From Candidatus Hadarchaeota archaeon (GTDB taxonomy: Archaea > Hadarchaeota > Hadarchaeia > Hadarchaeales > JAGGTB01): DNA of 64,000 nucleotides. Location of the stretch: contig CAYLJV010000001.1 in NCBI GenBank assembly GCA_964384105.1, positions 128,001 through 192,000 on the forward strand, in the 5' to 3' direction. The notes beneath the pieces were generated by a model. That model was given only the letters and a program-made list of their open reading frames with translations, did no database searches and was not told where the DNA came from. Below are positions 5,005 to 26,045 of this stretch, piece after piece (position 1 is the stretch's first letter; the number at the start of each line of letters is the position of its first letter). A program made the position numbers and the translations under genes.

Positions 5005-5015
5005 GTTACCACACC

Positions 5016-7554: not shown

Positions 7555-7850
7555 CAGGGGTTTAGGAGGGAGTAAAAAAACACTTTAATTGTTTGAATCG
7601 ATCTTTGAGATTTTAATAAATCACATATCGCACTCCCGCCGGTGTCTTTTACCTTCTCTTGAATTCATCGAGTTTTCAGCATCGGCGGATTTGGTGTCTC
7701 TCAATAATTTTTAATCTCTTTGTTTAAGGTGGGGGACACCGGGGCCGGGCGATGCCGGCAGGCGATGCTTCGGTCGGCTACCGATCAGCTGCTTTGCAAC
7801 CTGCCCGCGAAAGGGTAACATTCCCGGCCCTTTACTCTCACTATCACAAG
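7555..7850 (+). ncRNA. Candidate structured ncRNA, copy A of a two-copy family (core 7742-7830)
   Basis: No ORF; TATA-like TTTATATA at 7526-7533; GC-rich helices with G-U pairs; core shared with 25928-26027. Confidence 0.6.
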
Positions 7851-7907
7851 CTCAATTTTTTGAAATAATATGTCTTTCGGTTTTTTTTGGAACTTCTGCA
7901 CAAAGAA

Positions 7908-7935
7908 ATTTTTTGTTATGGGTGTAACAAAAAAT
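7908..7935. repeat. 28-bp palindrome ATTTTTTGTTA-TGGGTG-TAACAAAAAAT, copy 1
   Basis: Identical to 62169-62196. Confidence 0.85.
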
Positions 7936-7998
7936 TTTAAATTCCAAGTATGTTGAGGAGATCTTCCTTAGATAGTTTTGCGAAGCGGTAGTGGGTTG

Positions 7999-8076
7999 TG
8001 GTGGGGCTGCCCGGATTTGAACCGGGGTCACTGGCACCCAAAGCCAGAAGGCTAGTCCTGACTACCCCACAGCCCC
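7999..8076 (-). tRNA. tRNA-Pro(TGG), CCA encoded
   Basis: GGGGCTG acceptor stem, CTGGC-TT-TGG-GT-GCCAG anticodon arm, GGTTCAAATCC T-loop. Confidence 0.95.
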
Positions 8077-8347
8077 TATTATTTTCAGAAAAGAATTGAG
8101 TAGAATCACTATTAAAATGAGTGTCTGAATTGGTTAATTTCTGGATTAAACCAGTTCTAGTAATAGAGTTTTTATAACTATTGCATATTCATAAATCCAG
8201 ACTCCAGCAAATAGGTTCTAAAAGAGTACTCAGTGGTTGTCAGATATTTGCTGACTACAGTTGGAGATAGTAAAAATATTAATAATTTTGATAGTTAAAT
8301 CTCTCTATTAATACTAGAATATCGCCCTCTCCATGACTCTCTTAATT

Positions 8348-8602
8348 CTATTCTTTGGGTAAGTCGGATAGTCTCTTCAGTTTTATTGTTCCTCGAATCC
8401 TGGTATTTTGGCCGGTTCCGCCATCTACTTTCAATATATCCAATTCTTCTAAGGATAGGAAAATACTGCTCAAACTGTCAATATTTTTTAAGAATTTTTC
8501 CGACAGAGAACATTCTTTTTGGATCTCTTCTAGGTTGTGCCATTCGCAATCGGAGAGGTACTCGACTATTCTATCTATTTTCTCCCAGTTGTCTTTTTTC
8601 AT
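8348..8602 (-). CDS. Small hypothetical protein, probable winged helix
   Basis: IVEYLSDCEWHNLEEIQKECSL pattern. Confidence 0.5.
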   Translation of the reverse strand: MKKDNWEKIDRIVEYLSDCEWHNLEEIQKECSLSEKFLKNIDSLSSIFLSLEELDILKVDGGTGQNTRIRGTIKLKRLSDLPKE

Positions 8603-9002
8603 GGAATGACCAATTTATCTCCCGCTTGAACCTGCATAAAAATTTTGCTAAACAATATTCGGGATAGAGTCGAGACATCTTTTAATTTGTTTAGTTTTCC
8701 TAATGTTTTTCTTATCTATTTTACGATTCTTTTTCATATTTGCGTTTTTCTTTGCCAATAATTCTCTTGAGGTAAGTATTTTCTACTGAAGATGATTCTT
8801 TTTTATTTGATTCCGGATCGTCTTCCTTTTTTACCTTTTTGCTTCTTGATTTCTTTTCTTTATGTTTGTCTTTTTTCATCTCGAACTCCACTAGACTCTA
8901 TGGGATGATGCTTAATAATAGCAATTATGGATAAAGATAAAATTCCAAAAACCGAATTCTTATTCAAAAACATAGGATGTCTGCCGGTTCGTCTTTTTTA
9001 CG

Positions 9003-9317
9003 CTAGGAAGGTTTTCTTTTGACTACCGCTAACCTTCCTTGGTCGTCCTCGATTTCGAAACCATGACGCTGATACCAATCCAGTCTGGGTTTGAAGGTTT
9101 TTGCGACTATTTCCGAATTTTCAAAGTCTTTTAGAATATGCTTTAGGAGGGTGGAACCAACTCCCTTACTTCTGCTATTTCTTTTGATGTTTATCTGTTT
9201 GAGCTTAATTGGCTCGACGGAGTCTATCAGAGTTGCGCTCCCGATTATTCGACTTCCGTAGTCGTTCCAGACTACATATTTACATTTTTTCCCGGACTCT
9301 TCGCGTTCTATCTGCAT
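9003..9317 (-). CDS. GNAT acetyltransferase
   Basis: RSKGVGSTLL acetyl-CoA motif A; WYQRHGF. Confidence 0.8.
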   Translation of the reverse strand: MQIEREESGKKCKYVVWNDYGSRIIGSATLIDSVEPIKLKQINIKRNSRSKGVGSTLLKHILKDFENSEIVAKTFKPRLDWYQRHGFEIEDDQGRLAVVKRKPS

Positions 9318-9409
9318 TGTAATCCTAAAAGCAACGATGAGCTACTATAAAAGTCTTGAGGGGAAGCTCATTTAATTGGGACTTTTATGATATCAAAAGG
9401 TGATTTTCT

Positions 9410-10531
9410 CTATTTTTTTTCTAATGCCATGTCTAGGATCTTATTTACTTCTTTATTCAGTTCCTCTGGAAGTCCCAGGATTCTTACGTCCATGAAACCG
9501 CGCGTGATTAAGGATATTGCTCTGTCTCGGGGTATTCCTCGAGTCATTAGATATTCTATCTGTTTTTCGGAAATTTTTCCCACTGCTGCTTCGTGAGTTA
9601 TGTCTGCGCCTTTTTTTCTTGCAACTAGTTCAGGTATCGATCTGATGATGGAGTCATTATCCATAATCAGTCCCCGACATTCAAGGTGCCCTTTACACTC
9701 CGAATTGTTTCCATCTATTTCGCCTCTTACAATTATTTTGGCTCCATCTTGGACTATCGCTCGGGATATCATCTCTGCCCTGCTCTCTTTCCCGTTGAGT
9801 ACTGCCTTAGAACCGATATCTAGATTAGAATTTTTTTGACTGTAGAGAATATTATTGAAGCTAACTTTCGATTCCTTACCATTACAATACGCCTCAGGAT
9901 ACATCTGGACATCTTTGACCGGCTCTAAATTCACATAGTTTGAAGTGAAGCTTCCTTTATCTTCTATCAAAGCTGCACTACGGGGTCTGACAAAGGTTTC
10001 TTCGCCCCAGTCATGAATCATTGTAAAATTAAGCTCTGCGTTTTTCTTGATGTAGTATTCGGTTACGCCTAGATGGGACCCTTTTGTGACTCCGTGGCTT
10101 TGGGTACATCCACTTATTATATGAGCTTTGGAATTTTCTTCCGCTATTATTATGTTATGTACCTTCTGCTCTTGGTTTTGTTTTCTCATTAATAGGCAGG
10201 ACTGAAGTGGGAACATAATCTCTTGATTCGGTAAGATTCTCATGAAATATCCGCCGCCGAATTCTTCAGAAACTTTTTCCGTGAATTCGTCCTTTTCTTT
10301 ATCTATTAAGTTCCAGAGATAGTCCTTCACCCAGTCGTATTTCTCTAGAGCTTCCTTCGTATCCATTAGTTCTAATTTTCCACCGAATTTTTCGTTAACT
10401 TTTGAGTATACAGTGGACTGGTCTACGTGGAATAGTGTTCCAGAACGGGTTTCCTCCTCTTCGATTCCCACCTTGTAGGCTTCTTTGATTATTTCATGAG
10501 GAATTTTCTCTAGCTCTGATCCTTCTCCCAA
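9410..10531 (-). CDS. sufB: SufB/SufD-family Fe-S assembly protein (archaeal SmsB type)
   Basis: FPLQSCL, KGHLECRGLI, THEAAVGKI, YLMTRG. Confidence 0.9.
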   Translation of the reverse strand: MGEGSELEKIPHEIIKEAYKVGIEEEETRSGTLFHVDQSTVYSKVNEKFGGKLELMDTKEALEKYDWVKDYLWNLIDKEKDEFTEKVSEEFGGGYFMRILPNQEIMFPLQSCLLMRKQNQEQKVHNIIIAEENSKAHIISGCTQSHGVTKGSHLGVTEYYIKKNAELNFTMIHDWGEETFVRPRSAALIEDKGSFTSNYVNLEPVKDVQMYPEAYCNGKESKVSFNNILYSQKNSNLDIGSKAVLNGKESRAEMISRAIVQDGAKIIVRGEIDGNNSECKGHLECRGLIMDNDSIIRSIPELVARKKGADITHEAAVGKISEKQIEYLMTRGIPRDRAISLITRGFMDVRILGLPEELNKEVNKILDMALEKK

Positions 10532-10532
10532 T

Positions 10533-11276
10533 TTACCATCCCTCTGTGACTCTTTCTTTGCAGGAGAAACACTCTTTGTATCCTTTCTCTTTTATTTCCT
10601 TGAGTATTCTATGGGGGTCGGGATAGCATCTGATCTTTTTTCCAAACATGACGCATGCGTGGTCCACATCCACGTGTTCCAAGATGCCACCTTGGTGAGT
10701 AACGATCAAAGCTGAGCTGCTAGTTTCCTTTATATATTCCTGAATCTTTCTTCCTATCAGCTTCAAACTTTCGACATCTACTCCAGAATCTGGTTCATCT
10801 AAGAGCAATAGCTTAGGTTTTAAGAAAAACATCTGGAGAGTTTCAGCTCTTTTTCTTTCTCCTCCAGAAAAACCTACATTTATTTCCCGATCGAGAAAGT
10901 CGGTGAGTCGTAGCGTTTCTATTAACTCCCGCTCTTTTTTAGTAAAGCTATCATTTCTCTCCTTTCCGGCAGATAACTTTAGTAAATCAGATAGTTTTAT
11001 TCCAGTGATTTCAGGCGGATGTTGGAATCCGATAGAAATTCCAAGTTTTGCTCTTTCCTCAACGCTTAGGTTGGTTATATCCTTTCCAAGGAATCTTATT
11101 TCCCCATCGATGTTTTTTGGAGGGACTAGGCCCATTATTGCGTGTAGTAGAGTCGTTTTTCCGGAACCGTTTGGCCCAAATAGGACGTAGCTTTCTCCTT
11201 CGTTTAATTTAAGAGAAATCTTGTCTAGGATTTTTTTGTTTCCCATCTTTACTTTCAGATCTTCTACTTCCAGCAT
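10533..11276 (-). CDS. sufC: SufC-type ATPase (SmsC)
   Basis: GPNGSGKT, NVGFSGGERKR, LDEPDSGVD, C-terminal CxxC. Confidence 0.9.
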   Translation of the reverse strand: MLEVEDLKVKMGNKKILDKISLKLNEGESYVLFGPNGSGKTTLLHAIMGLVPPKNIDGEIRFLGKDITNLSVEERAKLGISIGFQHPPEITGIKLSDLLKLSAGKERNDSFTKKERELIETLRLTDFLDREINVGFSGGERKRAETLQMFFLKPKLLLLDEPDSGVDVESLKLIGRKIQEYIKETSSSALIVTHQGGILEHVDVDHACVMFGKKIRCYPDPHRILKEIKEKGYKECFSCKERVTEGW

Positions 11277-11512
11277 TTTATTTCCAAATCCTGTTATTCG
11301 TCTTTTTTGATACCTTTGATTGTTTATGTTATTAAACTGATGATTGCGCTCTTCTCTTCCTGTCTTGGTGGAAATTTTCGACTGTGGAAAGGAATATCAG
11401 TTTTCCGTAAGATTGATTATGAGCTCGTCTGTAGAAGAGTAACTCTCGGGTTGATCGGCATGTTGATGCTTTAAAATTCAAAAAATATTAGTTATCTCGA
11501 GTAATAGTACGA

Positions 11513-12490
11513 GTGATTAAAGTGAAAATAGTAGCTATTGAGGATCTACAGTTGGAAGAAAATGAAGTAAGGCGGATTTTCTCAGAATTTTTGAAACCGG
11601 ATAACGACTTGAAATACTTCAAGAATAAGCCGGATTCTCAATCTGAGCTAATAGACAGGTTATCGGATGCCGAGATAGCTATTGGCGTTAATTTTCCTAT
11701 TAGTCGAGAAGCGATATCTGAGTCAACGAATCTAAAGATGATATCTACCTCTTTTACAGGATACGATCACGTCGATATCGATGCTGCGACCGAGAGAGGG
11801 GTAGTAGTAACCAATGTTCCGGAATATGCCACTTATGCTGTGACTGAATTGGTCTTTGGATTTATTTTTTCTATTTTAAGAAAGTTAAACAAGGCAGATG
11901 CTGTGGTTAGGACCGGCTGGACCAGAGAAGGTCTTTTAGGGAAGGAGCTTTTCGGTAAGACTCTTGGTGTTATTGGGGCGGGTAATATCGGTCAGGAGGT
12001 CGCTAGAATTGGAAACACTTTCGGAGCAGATGTTCTAATTTACGATTATGCTCAGAGGGAGGATATAGCTGAGAAGGCGGATGCTGAACTCTCCAGATTA
12101 GAAGATCTGTTAAAAAATAGCGATATAATCACGATTCATGTTCCATTGAACGAGGAGACATATGGATTTATTGGAAAAGAGGAGATCGATTTGATGAAAG
12201 AGGGAGCTATTCTGATAAACGCAGCAAGAGGACCAATAGTTATGAGAGAACCACTTATGGAAGCTCTGAAGACAGATAAAATCAGCGCAGGCTTGGATGT
12301 TTATCATGAGGAACCTCTCTCGCCCGATGATCCTTTAACAAAGACCGAAAATACAGCTTTTACACCCCATATAGGCTTCTATACGGAGGAGGCTCTTTTT
12401 AGAAGAACTAAAACAGCTTTTGAGAATATCGAAAGTTTCTTAGAAGGAGACCCTAAAAACGTGGTTAATCCTACCGTTTTAGATAAATAG
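11513..12490 (+). CDS. D-2-hydroxyacid dehydrogenase
   Basis: GAGNIG, HVPL, INAARG, LDVYHEEP, TPHIG. Confidence 0.9.
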   Translation: MIKVKIVAIEDLQLEENEVRRIFSEFLKPDNDLKYFKNKPDSQSELIDRLSDAEIAIGVNFPISREAISESTNLKMISTSFTGYDHVDIDAATERGVVVTNVPEYATYAVTELVFGFIFSILRKLNKADAVVRTGWTREGLLGKELFGKTLGVIGAGNIGQEVARIGNTFGADVLIYDYAQREDIAEKADAELSRLEDLLKNSDIITIHVPLNEETYGFIGKEEIDLMKEGAILINAARGPIVMREPLMEALKTDKISAGLDVYHEEPLSPDDPLTKTENTAFTPHIGFYTEEALFRRTKTAFENIESFLEGDPKNVVNPTVLDK

Positions 12491-12522
12491 ATTTGATAGA
12501 AATTCTAATTTCTAATTATTAA

Positions 12523-13128
12523 TCACTCAAGAAGCGTAAAACTGTCCAAAACTGTGTTTAGCTGAGATTTTAACTGTTCATGGGATCCTTCGTATGAATA
12601 GTAGGAGATTGAATATCCAGAATTATCTCTTTTCAGGAGTATTGTTCTCGCAATTGTATTGTTTTTCTCATTCTCTTGAGTTGCTCTATAGGAGAAATCA
12701 ATCCCTGATGCGTCTTTTATTTGTATATCCTTCTTTTCTTCTAGGAGATTCATGTTTTCGTTGTTTTTAATTGTTGTGTCTATCTGTTCCCATATTGATT
12801 CCAAGGAGTTTCCAAAAGAAGGTACCGTGTAGATCTGTATCTCTGCCTGAGGTCTACCAGCAGTGGAGTTTTCTAGGATAGAAACCCTAAAAGTTCCGAA
12901 GGCTACGGTATTTTCTTCGTGCCAATTAGAGGGATATTCGAAGGAGAATTCGTATTCTTCGCTTACAAATTTTTTGTAGTCTCCATTCTGGACAGATGCA
13001 CTACCCGATGTTTCACTGATATAGAGAGTTCCAACTATAGCTATGGCTATAATAACCGCGATGACCGGTATCGCATCTAGTCCCGTTCCCCGGTTTATCC
13101 TGTCGTGTTCTTCGTCCATGCTAATCAA
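12523..13128 (-). CDS. Membrane-anchored PsbP/DcrB-like protein
   Basis: N-terminal TM helix; FSFEYPSNW; ends VLDSFTL. Confidence 0.65.
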   Translation of the reverse strand: MISMDEEHDRINRGTGLDAIPVIAVIIAIAIVGTLYISETSGSASVQNGDYKKFVSEEYEFSFEYPSNWHEENTVAFGTFRVSILENSTAGRPQAEIQIYTVPSFGNSLESIWEQIDTTIKNNENMNLLEEKKDIQIKDASGIDFSYRATQENEKNNTIARTILLKRDNSGYSISYYSYEGSHEQLKSQLNTVLDSFTLLE

Positions 13129-13241
13129 CCAAACAACTCGCTCGTTTAAAGGATTTCCCCTTTCTAATTGACTTTTTGATTCGAAAAACCGAAAATTTTA
13201 TTGAGTTAATTCGGTCGGTTTATATATGGGGAGGTGTTAAA

Positions 13242-13955
13242 TTGGGCAATAAAGATTTTTTTCGATTAAAAGACGTCAATATCTCTTACGGGCGAATCAG
13301 AGTTATAAAAGAAGTTAACATGAAAGTCAAAGCAGGAGAGTCCGTGGCTCTTCTTGGGCCAAACGGCTCTGGTAAAACGACGCTGATGAACGGGATTATT
13401 GGCTTGAAAGATGTGAAGGGGGAGATAATTTTCAACGGAGAGAACATAGCACCGTTGTCAGCTCACGAGATAGCTCATCGAAAAATAGCGCTTGCTTCCG
13501 AGAGGGGTTCGTTCTTCCCGACGATGAACGTGGCAGAGAATCTATTGATGAGCAGTATAACCCTGAGTAGAGACGAGAGGCAGGAGAGGCTGAAAGAAGT
13601 CTTGGGTCTTTTCCCTAGACTCGACGAGAGAGAAAAGCAGGAGGTTCAGAGCTTGAGTGGTGGAGAGAGAAAGATGCTCACTATTGGTATGGCTTTGATG
13701 AAGAACCCCGAGTTGGTCCTTGCTGACGAGCCTGCGATGGGTCTAGCTGTCGGTATAGTCGAAGACGTTATCAAGAAACTAAATGAGTTGAACGACAGGG
13801 GAATTGCTATAATTACCACCGAACAGAATATCGACTTTGTTCTTAAAGTCGCCGATAAGGTATATCTGTTGGATATGGGTGAGTTATCTGAGCCAATTCC
13901 CACTGATAAGTTAGAAGAATCGGAATTTGTAGAAAAAACTTACTTTGGAGAGTAG
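13242..13955 (+). CDS. LivF-type ABC ATPase, with no permease genes nearby
   Basis: GPNGSGKT, FPRLDER, LSGGERKML, DEPAMGLA, EQN. Confidence 0.85.
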   Translation: MGNKDFFRLKDVNISYGRIRVIKEVNMKVKAGESVALLGPNGSGKTTLMNGIIGLKDVKGEIIFNGENIAPLSAHEIAHRKIALASERGSFFPTMNVAENLLMSSITLSRDERQERLKEVLGLFPRLDEREKQEVQSLSGGERKMLTIGMALMKNPELVLADEPAMGLAVGIVEDVIKKLNELNDRGIAIITTEQNIDFVLKVADKVYLLDMGELSEPIPTDKLEESEFVEKTYFGE

Positions 13956-14105
13956 GGTTCGAACGATCTTGCTTGTTATAGAGGCGTTTATTTATCGTTA
14001 GCGTCAGCTCTAAGCCGATTTAATTGATTTCTTCTTTAAAAACAAATTAAGGAAAATAAGAGAAAAAAGGCCGAAATCAAAAATATTATCAATATTTAAA
14101 ATCGA

Positions 14106-14465
14106 TCATTGGCCGCCGGACATCATTTTTTGTAGTTTCTTCTGGTTTTCTTGTGCTTTTTCTTGAATACTATCTTCTTTACTTTCCATCGATTTTAGTT
14201 GAGTTTCCATTTTTTCTTTCATGTCCGTTAATTCTTCCATGAGTTCTTCTTTATCCGATTTCACTCCAATAGGTCCAACTACTCTAAAAACATCATCATC
14301 TTCATCGACGTCTTCGAGAGCATCGAACGCTTTGTCGAGATACTTTTGCTGTGCCTTGATTTGGTGCTTGTGTTCGTCTATCTGTTGTAGTTGTTGTTGC
14401 TGTTTTTGGAGTTCACCTATCATTTGCTTTGCTTCATCTGACATATTTTGTGGATTTGGTTGCAA
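14106..14465 (-). CDS. pfdB: Prefoldin beta subunit
   Basis: Coiled coils flanking a VFRVVG beta-hairpin; GAGGTG RBS before TTG. Confidence 0.85.
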   Translation of the reverse strand: MQPNPQNMSDEAKQMIGELQKQQQQLQQIDEHKHQIKAQQKYLDKAFDALEDVDEDDDVFRVVGPIGVKSDKEELMEELTDMKEKMETQLKSMESKEDSIQEKAQENQKKLQKMMSGGQ

Positions 14466-14707
14466 TTTTTTCACCTCCTGAAGTCGGAGTATAGTGTTAA
14501 TACTGTCTCCCCTAGTAAAAAAGGTCGGAATTGTCAGATTTCGATAAAATCTAAATATTTTTGAAAAAATTGCCCTTGACAAGACAAAAAATCAAAATGT
14601 TCTCTTTTTTTGGGAGCCTTCCTGTCTATTAAAATCATTGAGGGCCGTTCTTCCTCCAACTGTTATGAAAATAAAAAATCGAAAGAAGACTCGGGTTTGA
14701 GAAATAT

Positions 14708-15232
14708 TTAACTGGAGATTTTTTCTTTGGAGAGACTTAAGTGATCTTTTTCTATTTCGACTATAGCTTTGAAGAGTTTCCTGACCTCCGGTTCTTCTGC
14801 CTCTGAGGCAAACCTTGAATAAGCTTTTATTGCTCTATCCTCTCGCTTGTGAGCTTCTCGATAATTCTCTAATGCGTCTTTTGAGCATTTTTCGTAGCTT
14901 GGTATCTCTTCTTCGGGCACATCTATAACTTCGGCTAGCGCTTCAGCATGCTCTGCTTCTATTTTTCCTAGTCTTTTAAAAATCGCGGCGTCTGATTCGC
15001 TCTCCGTTTTTTTAGCAGCGCAAGCATAGAACTTTGCGTTGTCAATTTCCAGTTCTATTGCCTCTAAAACGTTTTTACGAGACTTCTCAGAAACTTCTTT
15101 GGGCATTAATCGTTCGTATTTCTCTAATTTTTTCAAATATTCTTGATGAGCTCCACAGTAGGGACAGTTCTCTGGTTTCGAGTATCCCAGATACGTTTCT
15201 CCACAAATCTCACATCTGAAAGCTGTGAACAT
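14708..15232 (-). CDS. Rubredoxin + ferritin-like (reverse rubrerythrin-type) protein
   Basis: CEICG...CPYCG followed by EAEH/EKDH diiron motifs. Confidence 0.85.
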   Translation of the reverse strand: MFTAFRCEICGETYLGYSKPENCPYCGAHQEYLKKLEKYERLMPKEVSEKSRKNVLEAIELEIDNAKFYACAAKKTESESDAAIFKRLGKIEAEHAEALAEVIDVPEEEIPSYEKCSKDALENYREAHKREDRAIKAYSRFASEAEEPEVRKLFKAIVEIEKDHLSLSKEKISS

Positions 15233-15381
15233 ATAAAAATCACCTCTTCATATTTATAATCTATTTCGAAGCTTTTAGCCTCTTTGTGTGAGTGGATTTC
15301 GTTATTGATCTTTTACGATGAATTCGTAATAATAAAGATAATAAAATAAAAGATTATTAGAAGAGTTTCTCCATATTCCGT

Positions 15382-15576
15382 TTACTCTATCTTTTTTACT
15401 TTAATGGCCTTTGGGCCCTTTTCCCCTTCTTCGGAGTCGAACTCTACGGTGTCTCCTTCGTTTAGTTTTCCAGACACGATATCGTCTCCGTGAACATAGA
15501 GATCTTTTTTTCCTTCCTCGGGTTCGATAAAGCCGTAGTTTCTCATTCCGTTAAAGAATTTTACTGTTCCTTTCAT
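15382..15576 (-). CDS. Cold-shock domain protein
   Basis: MKGTVKFFN...YGFI...DLYVH...KGPKA. Confidence 0.92.
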   Translation of the reverse strand: MKGTVKFFNGMRNYGFIEPEEGKKDLYVHGDDIVSGKLNEGDTVEFDSEEGEKGPKAIKVKKIE

Positions 15577-15838
15577 GTTATTACACCTCCTGGATTTCAC
15601 TGCTGCGATTCAGAAATGCAAACTATCCTTGGATTAAAAATAGATGTCTCTAAACCTTGTAACAGAATTTTTTTACTTTCCTTATCAACATCGGCTTGTG
15701 AACTTAAAAAGAGTCCCTTTGTTCGAAAGTGTTTAGTAGCTACGTTTTCTTTTATTACTTTTGAGATAACTAGTCTTATTCTTTTATTTTGAGGGTATAG
15801 GCCGGAAGGTACTAGTAGGAGGGAAGAAAGGTAATAAT

Positions 15839-16771
15839 GTGAGCTCTATTGAGGATTCCGAGAAGGAATCCGTTAAGTGTCCGAGCTGCGGTGGCACTTC
15901 CGTGGTGAGGGACTATCAGCACAACGTCACAATATGCGCTGATTGCGGCAGGATCCTAGAAGAGAATATAAAGGATCGGGGCCCGGAGTGGAGAGCATTT
16001 AGCTCCGAGGAATATGATAATAAGAAGCGATCAGGACCTCCTTCTACCCAGACTATTCATGATAGGGGTCTTTCTACAAAGATAGATTGGAAAAACAGGG
16101 ATGCACGGGGTAAGAATCTCTCACCTGAAAAGTCTCGACAGATGTATCGATTAAGAAAGTGGGATAATAGAAGCAAGATCGCCAATTCGGAGGATAGGAA
16201 CTTAATTATTGCACTCAGTGAGATGAGTAGAATGGTTTCTCAACTCGGTCTGCCGAGAAGTACGCAGGAGATAGCATCCAAAATTTACCGAAAAGCTGTC
16301 GAGGAAGGCCTGATTCGCGGGAGGTCGATTGAGGGTATTGTCTCGGCTACACTTTACGCGGCGTGCAGGGAGGCACAGATGCCTCGAACCCTCGAAGAGA
16401 TCGCTGAAGTGAGTCGAATTGATATTAGAAAAATTTCAAGTAATTATATGTTTTTAATCCGAGAGTTGGATCTCCATCTTCCGCCGACCGATCCAGCGAG
16501 ATATATAACTAGATTTGGAAGTGAACTTGGCCTTTCCGGCGAAGTTCAAACTGAGGCGATGCATATGATCAAAAAAATTCGAGATAAAAAGTTGACTTCC
16601 GGTAAGAGTCCCAGCGGGACGGCTGCGGCGTGTCTATACATTGCGGCTTTGAGGGGTGGAGAGAGGGTAACTCAGAGGGAAGTTGCGGAGGTTGCTGGAG
16701 TGACCGAAGTCACTGTCAGAAACAGATACAAAGATACGATCGACGATTTAGGTATCGAGCTTCAGCCTTGA
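15839..16771 (+). CDS. tfb: Transcription initiation factor IIB
   Basis: CPSCG/CADCG Zn ribbon, GPEWRAF, cyclin repeats, VTEVTVRNRYK. Confidence 0.95.
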   Translation: MSSIEDSEKESVKCPSCGGTSVVRDYQHNVTICADCGRILEENIKDRGPEWRAFSSEEYDNKKRSGPPSTQTIHDRGLSTKIDWKNRDARGKNLSPEKSRQMYRLRKWDNRSKIANSEDRNLIIALSEMSRMVSQLGLPRSTQEIASKIYRKAVEEGLIRGRSIEGIVSATLYAACREAQMPRTLEEIAEVSRIDIRKISSNYMFLIRELDLHLPPTDPARYITRFGSELGLSGEVQTEAMHMIKKIRDKKLTSGKSPSGTAAACLYIAALRGGERVTQREVAEVAGVTEVTVRNRYKDTIDDLGIELQP

Positions 16772-17131
16772 TTGTGAAATATGGGCTTTTATTCAAAGTT
16801 TTTAGAAAAGCTGTCACTGCTTCTTTTTTGAAAGACTTATAGGTATCACTTTTCACGGTCTTCGAATCTCTCAGATAAAAACTCCTAAATAGGTCTTAAT
16901 TTGAAATCAAAGCATAATTAGAAGATTTAGTATAGGTCACCTATAATTAGATTCTTGATCCGAATATTTAATATCTAATTAATTTAGTTGCCTTTACTGA
17001 ATTCTATTCCCATCACTAACACACATTGAAGTTAGAATTTGACAAAATTTTATTTTAGCCAATTTTCGTACTTCTACAGCAGATTTTGTCGAAAAACCTT
17101 TCGATAGTGTTCCGAAGTCGAAATATATTTC

Positions 17132-17674: not shown

Positions 17675-17777
17675 CCAATCCTATTCCTTTTTCATCATAA
17701 ATAAATCCACTTTTACATGAGCATGGCTAAAGGATCTAAATGAAGAATAGTTTTTTCTGTTAATTAAGGATTCTAGT

Positions 17778-18674
17778 TTATTTGAAAAGATCTCCGATTT
17801 CTTTTTTAAGTCCGGTAAGCATCCCTCTTACCAAAGCTTTCCACTTTTGCTCACCTTCTTTGAATATTAGCGCAGAGCAGTCTATACCGTTCACGATTTC
17901 ATCGGTCATCCAACCAAATAAGTACCGAGTGAAAACGTACTCTTTAGTTGGGCCCAGTATGATTAAATCGTAATCCTTTTTCGTTTCTTCTATCAAAGCT
18001 TTCGAAATTTTTTTATGTTGAATTATTTTTGTCTCGCACTCTACACCTAGATTATGCATGAAAGTTTTTGGTCCATTTAGGATTTCTTGAGCTTCTTCCT
18101 CAGTCTCGTCCTCTTGAAGAATATGGACTAATACACAGTCGGCCTTTGTTCCTTCAATTAATTTGGCGGTAACCGACAGCCGCTTTCTATAGTCGTAATC
18201 TTTGTACCCTACTGGGAAAAGAATCTTTTTTATATCCTGAACATTTCCAGTTCTATTTTTGAAGACTAGAACGTCTCGATCCGAATTGGCAAATATACGT
18301 TCAAGCGGATTTTGTCTCAGTGACCTTAGACTCATCTTGCCGCCCCACCCCATTAATATTAGATCGGAATCATTTTCCTCTGCCTCTTCGAGAACCCCTT
18401 GCCACACAGCCTCACTATATCTTATCTTTGGGACTATCTTTGTCCATCTACTAGCTGCCGTTTTCTCTCGATACCTCTCTATAGTTTTCGATGAACGACG
18501 CCAATCCTTTTGCATTTCTATGAAACTTCCTTCTTCGACTACAGTGAGAAATATGATTTTTCCATGATCTACTAGAACAGAAGCGAGTTCTGTTATTCTA
18601 TTTACATCGTTTGGATGTCGTACGGGTACTAGCAAGTTTTTATATCTATATTCATTCCCCAACATTATCCCCAT
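17778..18674 (-). CDS. Tandem universal stress protein, last gene of the kdp operon (KdpQ-like)
   Basis: Two USP domains (DLILMG; DLIILG); overlaps the end of kdpC. Confidence 0.75.
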   Translation of the reverse strand: MGIMLGNEYRYKNLLVPVRHPNDVNRITELASVLVDHGKIIFLTVVEEGSFIEMQKDWRRSSKTIERYREKTAASRWTKIVPKIRYSEAVWQGVLEEAEENDSDLILMGWGGKMSLRSLRQNPLERIFANSDRDVLVFKNRTGNVQDIKKILFPVGYKDYDYRKRLSVTAKLIEGTKADCVLVHILQEDETEEEAQEILNGPKTFMHNLGVECETKIIQHKKISKALIEETKKDYDLIILGPTKEYVFTRYLFGWMTDEIVNGIDCSALIFKEGEQKWKALVRGMLTGLKKEIGDLFK

Positions 18675-19236
18675 CCATAAGTCTTTTTACATCTATATTC
18701 AGTAAGAGGACGTTTACTCTCTTCAGTCCAAACATTCCGAGTAGAGGGTCCTCTGTATGTTTCTCGATCAGGTCCTTAAGTTTGCTTTCGGAAACGCCTG
18801 TATTTTTAGAAACACGAGGTATCTGCAACATCGCAGAATTAACTGTTATGTGGGGATCGAGAGCCGACCCGGACTCCGTAACTAGGTCCGATGGGACTTC
18901 TAAGTTCTCTGAGTTTTCCGAGATTTCCTCCAAAATTTCTCTAACTCTTTCGGTGAGTTCTGGGTTTTGTGGACCAAGGTTTTTGCTTCCCGATTTTCTA
19001 GCATCGTAATCTATTGAAGAAGGCCTTCCGTGGAAGTATCTTGAATCATCGAAATCCTGGCCGATCAACTTTGAACCGACTATCTCATTTTCATATTCAA
19101 CTAAGCTACCCTGGCGTGAGTCACTCCAGATCTGGCCTACCAATCCAACAGATAAGGGATAAGCTATTGAGAAGATTATTATTCCTACTATAATCAGTCT
19201 AACTGCCACGGATAAGTTCTTCAGTTTTTCATTCAT
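18652..19236 (-). CDS. kdpC: K+-transporting ATPase subunit C
   Basis: [30 protein letters not shown]. Confidence 0.95.
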
Positions 19237-21281
19237 CCAAACACCCCAATTGTAACGAGTAATAGGTCAATAAGCTTGATAGACACAAAAGGAGCTATCA
19301 ATCCAGCTCCGCCGTATAATAAGAGGTTCTTTCTCAACAACACGGAAGCACTTTCGGCCTTATAATCCACTCCCCTCATTGCTAGGGGGATCAGGAACGG
19401 GATTATCAACGCATTATATATTAGGGACGCCACGATGGCGCTCTGTGGAGAAAATAGATTCAACACATTCATCTTTGAGAGTGCGGGAATACCGGCGCTG
19501 AAAATTGCCGGAACCAGAGCAAAGTATCTGGAAACATCGTTTGCAATACTGAATGTTGTTAAGGACCCTCGAGTCATCAACAGTTGCTTTCCTATCGACA
19601 CAACTTCGATGAGCTTTGTTGGATCGGAATCCAAATCCACCATGTTTCCAGCTTCCTTAGCAGCGTTCGTACCCGCCTGCATAGCGAGACCTACATCTGC
19701 TTTCGCAAGAGCGGGAGCATCATTGGTTCCATCTCCAGTCATACCAACTAATTTTCCTTCTCCCCTGATTTTCTCAACTAATTCAATTTTTTCCTCTGGT
19801 TTAAACTCGGCGTAATATTCGTCTATTCCCGCCTTCTCAGCAACAGCCCGAGCGGTTCTCTCATTGTCTCCAGTGGCCATGATAGTTTGAACTCCCATAT
19901 TTTGGAGTTCCTCGATTCTCTCTCGGATTCCCGGTTTCAGCTCATCATGAAGCTCTATTAGACCTACTATGTCTTTGTTGACCGCTACTGCCAGAGGGGT
20001 CCCTCCTTTATCGGATATGTTGTTAGCTTTTTCTTCCAAATCCGATGGGATATTTTCAGCATACTCTCTGATGGCGTCGACAGCCCCTTTTCTAACTTCA
20101 GTTCCATCGGAAAGATCAATTCCACTCATTTTTGTTTTAGCAGAGAACTCAATGAAATTATTTTCCGATAATTCCCCTTCATCAATATTGACCTCCATTT
20201 CATCGGCAAGAACCACAACGGACCGACCCTCAGGGGTTTCATCAAAGTATGATGCTTTTAGACTCGCAGAAGCGATGTCCGAATCTTCATATTTCCCCAG
20301 TGGCACGAAACTTTCGGCCGTTCTCTCTCCAGTAGTGATGGTTCCAGTTTTGTCCAAAATTAGTGCATCGAGGTCACCTGCCGATTCCACGGCTTTACCT
20401 GTCTTGGCTATTACGTTGTCTTTGGTCACATTTGTCATACCTGCGATCCGGATAGTAGCTAGTAAGGCCCCAATTGTAGTTGGCATCAGACCAACCAATA
20501 ACGCAATTAGATTGGCCACGTCTACGGTCATATTCACGTAGGTTCCAAAAAATCTCATAGTTGTTACGGCCACCAAATAGATGAAGGTAAAACTGGCCAG
20601 AAGTAGGATCATCGAGATTTCGTTCGGTGTTTTTTCCCGAGTAGCCGATTCTACCAATCCAATCATCTTGTCCAAAAATGATTCTCCTGGCTCTGCAGTG
20701 ACTTCAATTTTCAAACGGTCGCTGAGCACCTCGGTCCCCTCCGTTACCGAGCTTCTATCACCACCACTCTCACGAATAACTGGTTCAGACTCCCCCGTAA
20801 CTGCCGACTCATCGATTGAAGCACTCCCTTCTATGACGGTTCCATCTCTGGGGATAAGATCTCCTTCTTCCACGAATACTAAGTCTCCTTTAGCTAGGTC
20901 ATCGCTATCCACTATCTCGTAATTTCCATCGGAGATTTCCTCCAAACCAAGATCCTTCGAGAGTTTTTTTCCTTTCGTCTCGGTTTTCAGTTCTCTCAAA
21001 CTATCAGCGTGAGCTTCACCTTCCAGTTCTGCAAGAGATTCAGCATAATTTGCGAAAAGAACTGTGAATAGTAAGAGGGCCGTGATTATACCATAGTACC
21101 ACTGAGCCTCGGCACCGCCAAAGAAAGGAGGGTATAAGGTTAATATGAAAGTCATAATTGTGCCGATTTCTACGACAAACATTACGGGGTTTTTGATTAG
21201 ATATGTGGGGTCGAGCTTGATGACCGCCTCCTTCATTGCATCCAATTGTTTATCCCAATCAACCACTCTACAGACCTCCAC
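19233..21281 (-). CDS. kdpB: K+-transporting ATPase subunit B
   Basis: [30 protein letters not shown]. Confidence 0.97.
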
Positions 21282-23007
21282 TCAGTAATTCTCCTATCGG
21301 GCCGAGGGCGAGAGATGGTAGGAAAATTAGTCCTCCTATTATTACCATAACACCTATGAAAAGTACCAAAAAGGAGATGCTTTCTATTTTCAAAGTTCCT
21401 TCTGTTTCTGGTCTAATCTTCTTGCTCGCTAGAGATCCAGCTATTATTATCTGGCCTGTTATTGGCAGATATCGACCGAGGAGAATTTGAATACCATTCG
21501 TTAGGTTATAGAAAATACTATTGTCAACAAGCCCTTCAAAACCACTCCCATTATTAGCCGAAGCCGAGAACATTTCATACAGTATCTCAGCAAAACCTCT
21601 GAATCCGGGGTTACTGATCGCTTCTTTCCCGATATCCGTAATGACGGCCAGGGAAGTAGGAATCAGCACGAGAGTGGGTAATAGCAATATTATCAGGGCA
21701 GCAATTTTTATTTCAGTCCATTCGATCCGTTTCCCCAGATATTGGGGTGCACGCCCGATCATCAGACCTGCTATAAAAACAGCGAGGAATAGATAAGTCA
21801 TTAGATTGAGAAGTCCAACTCCTAGTCCATTATAGAGGCAATTCATGCTCATTCCAAGGAAAAGCGGAAGTGTACCTTGTGCAGTGTAACTGTTATGCAT
21901 ACTGTTTACTGCACCATTGGTGGTAGAAGTGGTGGAAACACCCCAGAGGGCACTCATAACCGGCCCGAAACGGACCTCCTTGCCTTCCATGTTACCGTGA
22001 AGTTGAACAACTCTGCCATTCTCAGTGACAACGTTAACCCCTGGATTAGGCTGGAGTTCTCCGTTTATACCAACGAAAAGGAGTCCTAGGAAAAGTACAA
22101 AGAAGGCACCTATGAGAACTGCCGAATGCCATCTCTTGCCAATCCATATTCCAAAGGCATATATTACGGAGATAGGAGCTGCCAGTAGGAATAGGTTAAG
22201 GATTAAATTAGAGAGCACGGTAGGGTTTTCGAAGGGGTGAGCTGCATTTGCAGCGAAGTATCCACCTCCATTAGTTCCAAAAATCTTTATTGATTCTATG
22301 CCCGCAACTGGGCCAATTCTTATTGCCTGTTCTCCTCCTTCGATCGAATTTAAAGCTACTTGTCCACCAAAAGTCTGGGGCACTCCCTGGGAAACCAAAA
22401 ATACCCCCAGTATTATGGCTATCGGAATAAGAAAGCGTACTGATCCCCTTATTAGGTTGGTGTAGAAGTTACCAAGATCGTCGTTTTCCTCGTTCAAAAG
22501 ACCCTTTGTAAAACCAACTGCGAGACTGAGTCCTGTGGCCGCGGACATGAACATCGCCAGTCCAACACCGAACAACTGACTGAAATAAGATAGACTCTCT
22601 CCGGCGTAATGTTGCTGATTAGTGTTAGTTACAAAAGTGGAAGCTGTATGAAATGCTTGATGCCAGCTCATTCCGTCTAGATTGAGTGGATTTAGAGGTA
22701 GAATACCCTGAAAACGGAAAATAAAAATTAATAGCGTAAATAAAACTGCGTTAAATACGAACAAAGAAACAAGATATTTCCGCCAGTCCATGCCTTCGTC
22801 AGGGTCGACACCAATCAATTTGTAAATAAGGTTCTCTAATGGAGAGAAAATTCGATTCAATTTTTTGATCCAACTGAGCCAAGATGGAAGGGAACCCTTA
22901 CTGTTCGTTTGGTCTCTAAATATCCAAGCAAGATATTCTCCAAGGAAGTATATTAGAGCTAATAGAAAAACCAAGAAAAATAGTATTTGGAATATCACAC
23001 CGAACAT
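21268..23007 (-). CDS. kdpA: K+-transporting ATPase subunit A
   Basis: [34 protein letters not shown]. Confidence 0.97.
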
Positions 23008-23020
23008 AATTTCTCCTCAA

Positions 23021-23110
23021 TTAGAACTTGGTCGGGTTAAACAGCACGTATGCAAGATAAATTATCAAGAAAACTACAACACCTAGATAAACATAATCAC
23101 CTATTTCCAT
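23021..23110 (-). CDS. kdpF: KdpF small subunit, 29 aa; not in ORF track
   Basis: MEIGDYVYLGVVVFLIIYLAYVLFNPTKF directly upstream of kdpA, with RBS. Confidence 0.88.
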   Translation of the reverse strand: MEIGDYVYLGVVVFLIIYLAYVLFNPTKF

Positions 23111-23347
23111 CCTTCTCCCCTTTATCAAACATTAGGAAACTTCTTTCTTTTTAGTCTCCCAGTTTCTCTTTTTCCTTCTTACATGATATTTGTTTTCCTG
23201 CCCTCAGTTACCAAACAAAAATTTTTGATGAAGAAGTCTTTCTTTTTATTACCTGGTCTTCTACAGGCTTTCATCGAAGATTTTTTTGCCTGATTTGGAT
23301 TCTTACTTCGTCAATCTTTCATACGTCGGTATACATATCATATACCG

Positions 23348-23548
23348 ATGACAACAACTGTTCGTATAGATAAAGAGACTAGAGAACTACTGAAGGAAGC
23401 GGGTAGTAAGGAACAAACTTACAACGATATAATTCGTGAGTTGTTGGAGATGTGGGGAATGTTCATCGAGGACTTGTATTCTATTCTGGAAGAAACCAGG
23501 GAAGAGGATTGGTTGGACACTGACGAGCTCAGGAAGGAACTTAAATGA
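23348..23548 (+). CDS. Small ribbon-helix-helix antitoxin-like protein
   Basis: MTTTVRIDKETRELLK...TYNDIIRELL. Confidence 0.7.
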   Translation: MTTTVRIDKETRELLKEAGSKEQTYNDIIRELLEMWGMFIEDLYSILEETREEDWLDTDELRKELK

Positions 23549-23742
23549 CTGTTCTTTGAAGCCCAATTCTAGAAAGTAACTGGGAAAGCTCGAGAAAGAG
23601 ACACAAACTATGAATAATTAACAAGGTAGAGGAGTTCCACACTAAGGACAGAGGTGACATTTACGTTCTGAGAGTTACTCATTGGAAACATGCGTACCGT
23701 GAGGATGTTATAAGTGCTCTTCGGGGAAAAATCGACAGATGA
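23545..23742 (+). pseudogene. Degraded RelE-like toxin
   Basis: Fragments LKPNSRK*LGKLEKETQ and DIYVLRVTHWKHAYR, with stops; start overlaps the antitoxin stop (ATGA). Confidence 0.5.
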
Positions 23743-23861
23743 TGATTCTTGTTTTTTGTAAATCTCTAAATTTTTCTTTAACGGTAAGATTGTTGAATAA
23801 AGAGTAAGTAGACTTTTAGTAAAACTTAATAATTTTGTAAACATATTTGTTTACAGATACT

Positions 23862-24074
23862 ATGCCACAAGTTCAAGTAAGAGTTTCGGATGAAATGATG
23901 AAAACTCTTGATGAGTGGATCAAGGCTGGTAAATACAAGAGCAGGAGTGATGCTATTAGAACTGTTCTAGCTAAACACGAAGAGAGGGAAAAAACTCGTG
24001 AGTTCTACGAAATGTTGATTAAGAGAAGTAAAGAATCTAAGGGACACCCTGAGAAGCTTGTTTTTTTGGAGTAA
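23862..24074 (+). CDS. CopG/RHH antitoxin
   Basis: VQVRVSDEM...GKYKSRSDAIR; directly upstream of a RelE gene. Confidence 0.8.
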   Translation: MPQVQVRVSDEMMKTLDEWIKAGKYKSRSDAIRTVLAKHEEREKTREFYEMLIKRSKESKGHPEKLVFLE

Positions 24075-24079
24075 TCTCT

Positions 24080-24346
24080 ATGGGGTTCGAAGTCTTGTTG
24101 CATCCAAAGGCAAATGAATTTCTCGTGAAATCAGATAATGATCTTCAGTATCGTATCAAAGATAAGCTAAAAAAGCTAGGTTCAAATCCCAGAAGAGGAA
24201 AAAAGTTAGTACATTCAGACTTCTGGAGGTTAAGAATTGGAAATTATCGTGCAATATATGAAATTGATCAAAATGAGGAGGAGGTTGTAATTTTGTTCAT
24301 AGGGCATAGAAAGGACGTCTACGATGATTTCTCGAGACTAATCTAG
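24080..24346 (+). CDS. RelE/ParE family toxin
   Basis: LHPKA...WRLRIGNYRAIY...IGHRKDVY. Confidence 0.9.
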   Translation: MGFEVLLHPKANEFLVKSDNDLQYRIKDKLKKLGSNPRRGKKLVHSDFWRLRIGNYRAIYEIDQNEEEVVILFIGHRKDVYDDFSRLI

Positions 24347-24602
24347 TTTGGGTTTTCCATGTAGAAATAATTTTTCCACTTCAATTAAGAAGAATTTTTT
24401 AGATTTTCTGTATTATGATTTTATGAATTTAGCTTTTTGTTTAGAAGGACCTTACTTAAATTCTCTTTTATTAATCTCAAAAAAATAATTCATTAATTAG
24501 CTAATCTATATGTGTAGAAAGCCTCTTGAGAGTAATACTAGTGTATAAGGTCATCTCAAAGGTCGAATCCACTTTTCGAAGGGAATAAGATAATTCCACA
24601 TC

Positions 24603-24860
24603 TTATAAATTGCAATTAATCCAATCCTTAAATTTTTGGAAATCCTTGGCACCAGCCTGATCAGCGATACTCCGAAGTGTTCCCGTTCTAATTGACTTGT
24701 GTAACGGAACTATAACAATTCGAACATCATCCTGTTTAGTTGGATGTTCGTAACGAAGCTTCACGTGGCTACCCGTCCGATCCACAACTTGGAATTGGTT
24801 CTTCGTAAGGGCCTTCACTATCTCATGACCAGAAAAATCAGATGATGTCATGTAAACCAA
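24603..24860 (-). CDS. hicA: HicA family toxin
   Basis: RTGSHVKL...VPLH...GTLRSI. Confidence 0.9.
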   Translation of the reverse strand: MVYMTSSDFSGHEIVKALTKNQFQVVDRTGSHVKLRYEHPTKQDDVRIVIVPLHKSIRTGTLRSIADQAGAKDFQKFKDWINCNL

Positions 24861-25163
24861 TTACTGCATAAACTTAGGGAGTACTCTACTGTTCTCGCGG
24901 GTCTTTTTGACCTTATCATGATCAATACCGAGGCTTTTAAGGATCTCTCGCTCCTTCTTAGAAATATCGATAGATTCATTGATCTTTTTCCTGTAGAGTG
25001 TCACTGCCTCATCGAGGTTTTTCAGGGCCGCTTGGCGGGTCTTACCCTGGCTCGCAATACTCGTATCTCCATCCTTTGCAATCCATATGTCATCCTCCTT
25101 CCAGAGAAGGTAAGGAGCTTTCTCGGTCGGATTTTTCAGTCTTGTTGCCATTTCATTTTCCAA
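24861..25163 (-). CDS. hicB: HicB family antitoxin
   Basis: WIA...IASQGKTRQAALKNLDEAV. Confidence 0.85.
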   Translation of the reverse strand: MENEMATRLKNPTEKAPYLLWKEDDIWIAKDGDTSIASQGKTRQAALKNLDEAVTLYRKKINESIDISKKEREILKSLGIDHDKVKKTRENSRVLPKFMQ

Positions 25164-25502
25164 TATCTTTTTCTTACCTATAAAAACCCGTACCTCTGAT
25201 TATTGGTATTTTCCGAAGGAAAGCCCAGGGAATATCTCATTTAAGCTCTTCTTTTTCTCCGTTAATGAGCTCTATTTAAAATACGCTAGAGAATATTAGA
25301 ATCAGGATATACCACACGATGCCAAAAATAACGTGAAGTCGAAATCTGCACCTAAACGAGCTAAACAGCCTCAAGCATATCCCACAGACCATTTAATAAG
25401 TTTTCTCTTAGCCTTTCAAGGTTCTTTAGACTTTTATTAAAGAATTAAAGCTCTTTTTAACTCTTGTTTAAAAATAAAAGGTCCATAGTAAGCTTAAAAG
25501 CA

Positions 25503-25576
25503 AGCCCCGGGTGGGATTTGAACCCACGACCTGCCGCTTACAAGGCGGCCGCTCTTACCAACTGAGCTACCGAGGC
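25503..25576 (-). tRNA. tRNA-Thr(TGT)
   Basis: GCCTCGG acceptor stem, GCCGC-CT-TGT-AA-GCGGC anticodon arm, GGTTCAAATCC T-loop. Confidence 0.95.
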
Positions 25577-25734
25577 ACTATTAGTTTTCTGGTAGTAGTT
25601 GTTTTTCTAATAATGGTTACTACTATTAATGTGCTAATTTTTGTTTTCTAGTAATATGGAATATTGAGTTAAAATCACACGTTTTTAAGTAATATACACT
25701 ACATTTAATAGTTATAACACCGTAATGAAAAATG

Positions 25735-26045
25735 AAAATCGGTGGAGGTGCTGAGAAGACATCAAAAGATCAAAGTTTCAGTTATCACGGTCCCGTCTGG
25801 CTCTGCTTTTTCTCCTTGACTCCGACTGTTAAATAGGCCGGACGGATAAACGCCCTCCTCTACTGAGGATGAAGTTTTTCACCCCCTACTGACTCAGTAA
25901 GGGGGAGCGAACCGCGAGGTTTAGTTTTTAGGAGGCCGGGCGCTGCTGGTAGGTTGTTTTTTCAGTTGGCATCTGAGAGATTCATAAAAAGCCTACCCGC
26001 GAAAGGGTAACATTCCTGGTCTCCTAACGTCGTGGTTCATCAGAG
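25735..26045 (+). ncRNA. Candidate structured ncRNA, copy B (core 25928-26027)
   Basis: Helices 25739-48/25857-66, 25793-802/25836-45 and 25882-905; GNRA hairpin AACC-GCGA-GGTT; core shared with copy A. Confidence 0.62.

Follow-up and report, generated by a model that had tools for sequence, protein, structure and literature searches.

The question raised by this locus is why two non-coding stretches of an archaeal contig, each close to a tRNA gene, resemble each other in the way expected of a folded RNA. They lie at 7742-7830 and 25928-26027 of a 64,000-nt window (positions 128,001 to 192,000 of contig CAYLJV010000001.1, here C1, of assembly GCA_964384105.1, from a Candidatus Hadarchaeota archaeon), and the initial annotation took them for two loci of an undescribed family of structured non-coding RNA (ncRNA) on the plus strand, distinct from a cis riboswitch. 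Rfam searches, contigs from RNA libraries and covariation at 21 of 25 base pairs all support that proposal, and the best explanation of our data goes beyond it: a structured RNA of about 250 nt is encoded here by seven genes, each transcribed on its own, two of which lie in the window, and the core first described is its 3' domain. We consider it very probable that this is a real, expressed family of structured RNAs that is absent from Rfam.

Both stretches are found in the sequence as described. They share an identical 21-mer (7804-7824 and 25996-26016), where we estimate that chance would supply about 0.0005 shared 21-mers in 64 kb, and they differ by the compensatory change GCAGG/CCUGC versus GUAGG/CCUAC and by G-C to G-U changes in the closing stem, as had been reported. 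The count of two loci did not survive. The window's own assembly (1.62 Mb, 90% complete) holds the 21-mer in five places, from which we built a full-length covariance model (R1); two further models cover the core only (R2) and domains 1 and 2 (R3). A search of the genome with R1 returned seven full-length copies, with expectation (E) values from 1e-63 to 5e-28. Copy 1 matches at 7623-7838 (C1:135623-135838) and copy 2 at 25780-26030 (E 2e-43), both on the plus strand, while copies 3 and 4 are found on contig C3, copies 5 and 7 on contig C4 and copy 6 on C1. The RNA is about 215-250 nt long and has two hairpin domains in its 5' part and, 3' of them, the core, which measures about 92 nt. The hairpin-rich regions that had been noticed upstream of the two cores do contain hairpins, yet they are not separate from the cores; they are the two conserved, covarying domains of the same RNA. 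Pairwise identity among the seven copies is 58-79%, with copy 2 the most divergent (58-61% identity to the others) and carrying an extra hairpin between domain 2 and the core.

In copy 1 the gene extends approximately over 7598..7850 on the plus strand, as judged from the R1 match and the RNA-library contigs, and both ends are approximate. A promoter-like purine-rich box followed by an A-rich TATA-like box can be read at 7560..7580 and an oligo-T tract at 7855..7862 is a candidate archaeal terminator, both on the same strand. AT-rich TATA-like boxes lie upstream of every copy and a T-run follows the core by 5-40 nt in six of the seven, which we regard as putative promoters and terminators. Domain 1 (7635..7688, plus strand) is a P1 hairpin of 9-10 bp with an inner stem of 3-4 bp, a pyrimidine-rich 5' internal loop and an apical loop of the UUGA type. 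Over the seven copies 87% of its alignment cells are paired and one pair changes on both sides, and by eye the inner stem covaries (CUC/GAG, UUC/GAA, UUCU/AGAA). Domain 2 (7693..7739, plus strand) is a P2 hairpin around the inner motif GGAG-UUUCUCA-CCUCC-UUGUUU, which is conserved in most copies and degenerate in copy 1; it has 8 pairs, four of them with changes on both sides, and 91% of its cells are paired.

The core of copy 1 occupies 7741..7831 (R2 match at 7740-7831) and that of copy 2 occupies 25931..26023 (C1:153931-154023), again on the plus strand. Its plan is a 9-bp lower stem (7741-7749/7823-7831 in copy 1), a short 5' junction and an arm of three stacked helices of 6, 3 and 4 or more bp, for which pair counts place P4 at 7757-7762/7800-7805, P5 at 7766-7768/7796-7798 and P6 at 7770-7773/7781-7784 beneath a 7-nt loop; a strand of 17-18 nt, near-constant among the seven copies, leads back to the lower stem. 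By covariation, GCC of the 5' junction (7754-7756) pairs with GGC of the P6 loop (7776-7778). The fold shown by the pair counts is one of a closing stem with an arm of three helices, and the apical loop of this arm pairs with the 5' junction to form an H-type pseudoknot, which leaves free a conserved junction strand rich in purines. The junction strand between P4 and the lower stem (7806..7822, plus strand, in copy 1) is identical in five copies, while copies 6 and 7 have an inserted A and an A-to-G change, and the motif common to the whole family is C-R-CGAAA-G. Here CGAAAG can form a mini-hairpin of the C[GNRA]G type, and by eye the core of a congener, genome G002, has GAGA at this place.

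Whether this fold is under selection was judged on an alignment of 28 cores: the seven paralogues, the one from G002 and 20 from 11 carriers in a second archaeal phylum (the copy of a twelfth genome is identical to that of genome G250 and was left out). Over the five helices, 97.8% of the cells are paired, compared with 77.3% after shuffling and 30-58% with the partners slid; 21 of the 25 pairs change on both sides and none of 500 shuffles reaches any of these measures. Covariation is therefore far stronger than the first reading could show, and compensatory change in excess of both the shuffled and the slid controls identifies a structured RNA under selection. All three pairs of the pseudoknot are compensatory (GC24/UA2/AU1, CG26/UA1 and CG24/UG3/UA1), with AUC/GAU in G250 where the others have GCC/GGC, and this serves as an independent test because the helix was absent from the model that built the alignment. 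A rival nested helix, in which the 5' junction would instead pair with GGUA in the junction strand, is paired in 84% of the cells with no compensation, and it was dropped in favour of the pseudoknot. A long-range helix between UUAUC in the 5' leader and GGUAA in the core (76% of cells paired, no covariation) is offered as an idea only. For the whole fold, counted on the seven copies in an alignment fitted to the model, 93% of the cells are paired and 11 of 48 pairs change on both sides, which none of 500 shuffles matches. The fold contains many G-U pairs, which would turn into A-C mismatches if the minus strand were the one transcribed, and the RNA is assigned to the plus strand for this reason. 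Apart from the helices, the 28 cores also conserve unpaired nucleotides: CG after the lower stem, C.CUG after the first helix of the arm, UGGC in the loop, CAAC before the returning strand of the arm and the C-R-CGAAA-G motif in the junction strand.

Among sequencing runs, DNA runs contain the stretch and RNA runs contain part of it. Four runs were compared with window positions 7000-8300, uncovered parts being counted as no evidence, and the small shares of the stretch present in further runs are uninformative on habitat. RNA libraries of three studies contain contigs of copy 1 at 90-95% identity, one of 252 nt on 7599-7850, one of 237 nt on 7593-7832 and one of 182 nt on 7647-7826. These three short contigs cover the RNA, its flanks are not covered by the contigs compared, and contigs start about 25 nt after the purine-rich and A-rich boxes (~7560-7580). 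Further short contigs from RNA libraries share the core only and diverge upstream, as other paralogues would. Transcription had been named as one of the checks on the proposal, and this is the outcome that the proposal predicts.

The RNA corresponds to no catalogued family that we could find. Searching the whole window with the 4227 covariance models of Rfam 15 at the gathering threshold gave three tRNAs only. At E-values up to 10 the two window loci gave unrelated noise only, and the other five copies and the G002 locus gave the signal recognition particle (SRP) RNA, tRNA and noise, all outside the RNA; nine loci of the second phylum gave no hits at E-values up to 1. Full-text literature searches returned no description of the family, and four motif strings were likewise unmatched. 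A tRNA or tRNA-like origin was rejected, as the only tRNAs that ARAGORN and Rfam detect there are the neighbouring ones. The family has no match to the models of SRP RNA and RNase P RNA either, and the genome has one normal gene for each of these at another place; the RNase P RNA, at C3:148469-148758 (L140), is of normal archaeal type and scores 220 bits. These two share with the family the character of a GC-rich stable RNA in an AT-richer genome. The omega RNA of TnpB/IscB systems was set aside, since the sole TnpB-like open reading frame (ORF), at about 5.8-7.0 kb of C3, has no covariance-model hit and the seven copies have housekeeping neighbours; this ORF (L019) encodes 393 amino acids, matches Cas12f1-like_TNB at 75 bits and is unrelated to the RNA family. 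An RNA of a retron or group II intron was dismissed with the finding that the genome, at its 90% completeness, has no RVT_1 match. H/ACA and C/D guide RNAs were judged on the alignments by eye, with no dedicated tool: there is no ACA after the closing stem, there are no C/D boxes and no tandem G-A kink-turn, and the internal loop is constant among the paralogues. To our knowledge, very few archaea-specific structured ncRNA families have been described besides guide RNAs, SRP RNA and RNase P RNA.

A riboswitch or cis-regulatory leader is likewise rejected, in agreement with the initial annotation, which saw no same-strand gene downstream of either window copy: copy 1 faces tRNA-Pro and copy 2 faces the triosephosphate isomerase gene. 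Copies 1, 2 and 7 all face opposite-strand genes. Among the 19 loci examined in the second phylum no same-strand downstream gene recurs (the Pfam neighbours include trkA, SRAP, TFB and purD), and in 15 of them the nearest downstream ORF is on the opposite strand. The RNA is not a classical riboswitch, because no same-strand downstream gene recurs.

Next to which genes, then, do the copies lie? They stand among housekeeping genes of unrelated kinds, which include trkH and the genes for a VTT/DedA protein, triosephosphate isomerase, TFB paralogues, a nitroreductase-like protein, phosphoenolpyruvate carboxylase and a flavodoxin-like protein. The adjacency to tRNA genes holds for both window copies, with tRNA-Pro at 7999-8076 on the minus strand, 161 nt beyond copy 1, and tRNA-Thr at 25503-25576 on the minus strand, 204 nt before copy 2 (both by ARAGORN and Rfam). 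As a trait of the family it is weak. Only three copies in seven have a tRNA gene at a distance of about 200 nt or less, each time on the opposite strand, and this is marginal (P ~0.046) when compared with random non-ORF gaps of at least 350 nt. The third such copy belongs to a cluster of stable RNAs at C4:84.3-85.2 kb (L017:936-1751), where SRP RNA (190 bits in Rfam) and tRNA-Ser are followed by copy 7 on the opposite strand, 72 nt from tRNA-Ser.

Seven dispersed copies, three of them near tRNA genes, could also be the remnants of a small non-autonomous mobile element, similar to a miniature inverted-repeat transposable element (MITE) or a short interspersed element, whose inverted repeats we would be reading as stems. 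The presence of a core in an operon spacer of G002 that is only 9 nt long in the window genome fits such an origin as well. The initial annotation had named terminal repeats and target-site duplications as signs of a MITE, and the dispersed copies prove to be old, at the 58-79% identity already given, and to have neither. Their flanks are about 50% identical, as expected of AT-rich DNA, with no consistent repeat of at least 8 nt across the flanks of the seven copies. A mobile element does not account for compensatory change in five nested or knotted helices, nor for an 18-nt strand that has no partner. The single TnpB-like ORF is not hit by the covariance model, there is no reverse transcriptase, and in the second phylum one locus is syntenic across genomes. 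Collections of mobile DNA gave no match either: blastn against plasmids and phages found none, and pattern scans of viral contigs gave 0, 19 and 0 places, with none of the 19 confirmed. (The pattern scan gave no hits in genome contigs and seven places in metagenome contigs, only one of which gave a score with R1, a partial match of 12 bits taken as chance.) We therefore rejected the MITE or transposon reading and regard a mobile origin as very improbable.

How far the family extends was addressed by running R1, R2 and R3 over the window's phylum, the largest run covering 65 genomes of its class. Only one other real match was found among them, the core alone in G002 (L018, G002:C102, ~1463-1690 when read in the direction of the pst genes; E 2.6e-12 with R2), where it sits in the 175-nt spacer between pstA and pstB, on the strand of the operon. 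The corresponding gap in the window genome is the one of 9 nt, and either the core was inserted into the pst operon of G002 or G002 has kept an older arrangement. That no other relatives among the 65 genomes matched is a weak negative, as most of the assemblies are fragmented and the proteins they encode are only remotely similar (33% identity in the case of one neighbour). Weak hits of R1 and R3 in G001, in G002:C45 and in G005 look coding-like by eye, lack AT-rich intergenic flanks and have E-values of at least 0.03 per genome, and they were put down to chance. A locus near a contig end in G005 (L024, G005:C131:4135-4281) has a weak match to both R1 and R3 (E 0.03-0.1 per genome) and no core, and it bears a domain-2-like GGAGUUUCUC element; it is either a remote relative or chance.

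R2 was also applied to five other archaeal phyla, with 151 genomes for each. Nothing was found in four of them (the G066, G067, G069 and G070 groups), which are weak negatives given strict filters and 28 candidates scored per genome. The fifth gave one match, in G250 (E 5.9e-6), and six genomes match R2 among 40 relatives of G250. A search of 401 genomes of that class for an exact 14-mer of their junction strand located it in 11 genomes, at 18 places compared with two for the reversed control; three of the 18 (L158-L160) were not confirmed by R2. Altogether the core is present in 12 genomes of this second phylum, with one to three copies in each and two in most of those checked. The carriers are probably Halobacteria, because the loci are 56-71% G+C and the neighbours include HTH_10 and DUF7260 proteins. 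At seven of the loci the RNA occupies the same syntenic site, with a DHDPS-family gene on one side and trkA, to which it is convergent, on the other. Another locus adjoins a SRAP peptidase gene (Pfam), a site that three more appear to share by eye, and one copy (L167) lies beside a TFB gene. The G250 copy, which begins at an A/T-rich box of its own, lies 150 nt before purD. Thus the search of relatives proposed with the initial annotation yields full-length copies in the window genome and the core in a congener and in a second phylum.

The second-phylum RNA would be roughly 180-220 nt long, and 15 copies share a 5' part that differs from ours, an A/T-rich box followed by a GC-rich hairpin and a linker, together with a conserved 3' tail. 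The core is modular, because it stands alone in the pst spacer of G002 and is joined to a different 5' domain in the second phylum; it is shown in this way to be an old, self-contained module. In genome G525, two copies (L146, L148) have a hairpin about 60-100 nt upstream of the core with the loop UUGCUCA followed by CCC(A/U)CAAC, which resembles the UUUCUCA-CCUCC element of domain 2 by eye only, R1 not reaching there.

What the RNA does is less certain. Our preferred reading, which we hold tentatively and at somewhat less than even confidence, is a handle-plus-effector mechanism. The RNAs would be stable and act in trans, either in ribonucleoproteins or as regulators; their core would be a shared handle recognised by a protein, which would also shield the 3' end from exonucleases, and the lineage-specific 5' domains would carry the effector surfaces. 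The core is taken as the functional heart because its fold and its junction nucleotides are kept across two phyla while the 5' parts differ. In the window genome the effector surfaces would be the pyrimidine-rich loops, one of which resembles the 3' end of 16S rRNA and could pair with purine-rich ribosome-binding sites. The 16S rRNA 3' end is GAUCACCUCCU and domain 2 of three copies carries CUCACCUCCUU, while motifs of the Shine-Dalgarno type precede 22% of long ORFs compared with 4.5-6.7% at control positions; this likeness and this frequency make pairing with ribosome-binding sites conceivable. Anti-Shine-Dalgarno mimicry as a function of the whole family was rejected, since the stretch is not conserved outside the three copies. 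The working principle, and only that, is like that of bacterial small RNAs (sRNAs) of the Hfq type, which are also paralogous small genes with a constant structured 3' module and variable 5' parts bearing pyrimidine-rich loops. The 3' module of those sRNAs is a terminator hairpin that ends in a U-tail, whereas the present family has a pseudoknotted junction of 92 nt in this place, and its hosts are archaea.

Several observations weigh against this reading, some of them at the level of the RNA itself. The contigs are assembled and come from relatives at 90-95% identity, so that they attest presence in RNA libraries rather than strand, ends or level; the libraries may contain carried-over DNA, and breaks in assembly induced by repeats may have shortened the contigs. 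The 28 sequences are kin, both paralogues and orthologues, and their counts overstate the number of independent events, and the alignment used for counting the nested helices had itself been fitted to these helices. As for function, every step is inferred. The 16S-like stretch is base-paired inside its hairpin, is degenerate in copies 1, 2, 5 and 7 and is absent from the second-phylum RNAs; one stand-alone core, that of G250, has no obvious effector part; and ribozymes and aptamers just as typically combine a near-invariant junction with a pseudoknot.

The fact that the core is found 3' of unrelated 5' domains in two phyla, and by itself between pstA and pstB, can also be accounted for by a stability or processing element that has no partner. 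A knotted fold of this kind would block exonucleases or aid the formation of 3' ends; it would serve a variety of small RNAs at their 3' ends and, within an operon, would stabilise the segment upstream. The ends of two of the three copy-1 contigs (7826 and 7832) are no more than 5 nt away from where the lower stem closes at its base, a weak hint only, as contig ends are not RNA ends. Repetitive extragenic palindromic (REP) and MITE repeats and exonuclease-resistant RNAs similarly place a compact, stable fold in operon spacers and at 3' ends, but the copies here are old and divergent, without terminal repeats, and keep conserved unpaired nucleotides across phyla. Mechanical stability alone does not require such near-invariant unpaired junction nucleotides, and the G250 copy opens its transcript unit and has nothing upstream to protect. 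We find this explanation unlikely, and the handle of a trans-acting RNA remains the reading that we prefer.

The same near-invariant nucleotides, in a compact (~92 nt) and pseudoknotted core, raise the possibility of a new self-cleaving or otherwise catalytic RNA, which would free domains 1 and 2 in the window genome and cut the pst mRNA in G002. Compactness, a pseudoknot and a scattered, multi-copy distribution are traits of known small ribozymes. The family resembles twister, hepatitis delta virus (HDV)-like, hatchet and pistol ribozymes in these traits and in size and junction conservation, and its distribution is independent of context, an operon spacer included. It differs from them in that no Rfam ribozyme matches even at E-values up to 10 and in a helix order unlike the HDV-like or twister layouts. 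By eye the hammerhead core is absent and an HDV-like layout, with its double pseudoknot, does not fit. Furthermore, no cleavage site can be proposed, and the contigs run unbroken from domain 1 through the core, although partial cleavage would still be compatible with them. A catalytic core thus appears distinctly unlikely.

A pseudoknotted junction pocket lined with conserved unpaired nucleotides would also suit an aptamer for a ligand or ion, K+ or a nucleotide second messenger for example, acting in trans or on the stability of its own RNA rather than as a classical riboswitch of the 5' untranslated region. Its appeal lies in the neighbours: seven of the 19 second-phylum loci adjoin trkA, copy 1 is 1.1 kb from the trkH-trkA operon, and the G002 core is inside a phosphate-transporter operon. 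However, the seven trkA loci are orthologous to one another and count as a single event, at which the RNA is convergent with trkA; six of the seven copies in the window genome have no transport neighbour, no same-strand downstream gene is conserved and no expression platform is seen. We regard an aptamer as quite improbable. Joining the last two ideas, the core might be a new RNA class of halophilic archaea, either catalytic or a trans-acting sensor of ions or second messengers tied to potassium and osmotic homeostasis, which was exchanged between the small-genome phylum of the window and Halobacteria-like hosts and was recruited seven times here as the 3' domain of a larger RNA; we find this doubtful.

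The trkH-trkA operon itself occupies window positions 4336-6496 on the minus strand. Its trkH is present as two ORFs, of which 5531-6496 corresponds to profile positions 29-243 and 5016-5477 to positions 346-491, and it may be a split or frameshifted gene.

The family invites comparison with the orphan bacterial RNAs ROOL, GOLLD, raiA and OLE, which are also multi-domain and supported by covariation. These are RNAs of 200-800 nt, bacterial or phage-borne, and ROOL and GOLLD are often found near tRNA genes. They differ from the family in being Rfam families, none of which matches here, and the link to tRNA genes is weak in our case. Another candidate for comparison is the nanohaloarchaeal intergenic sRNA STRG.4577.1 from halite communities, which Gelsinger et al. 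(2020; PMC7002113) describe as conserved, structured and 266 nt long. Compared by description only, it agrees with the family in its similar length, in being conserved and structured and in coming from an uncultured small archaeon of a salt habitat, and the same paper reports an antisense RNA at trkA in halite communities.

What we describe is an uncatalogued pseudoknotted RNA family of archaea, with seven paralogues in this genome and relatives in a second phylum. The novelty is in the family and its fold, and its function may prove to be that of a familiar kind of regulator. Its distribution crosses phyla and is patchy, in what look like salt-adapted archaea. RNAs with this profile, a knotted fold and expressed paralogues without a catalogue entry, have in the past been a source of new ribozymes, riboswitches and ribonucleoprotein scaffolds. 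As relatives are present in Halobacteria-like genomes, a group that includes genetically tractable species, the function is directly testable.

Some further features of the surroundings deserve mention. At C3:115.3-120.6 kb (L011, L014) two TFB paralogues stand in tandem, each with an RNA copy upstream on the same strand, copy 4 at 833 nt and copy 3 at 1476 nt from the respective gene, and the likeness between the two units is limited to the RNA (73% identity) and the TFB genes (66%); the second-phylum copy L167 likewise adjoins a TFB gene. Copy 2 shares a large, sparsely coding gap of the window with tRNA-Thr, a gene for a ParE-type toxin (24080-24346) and a DUF7387 gene (24861-25163). Elsewhere on C1, at 351151 and 581189, ARAGORN reports two tRNA-like genes whose anticodon loops are unusual ('atag' and 'cc') and which are possibly intron-containing tRNAs.

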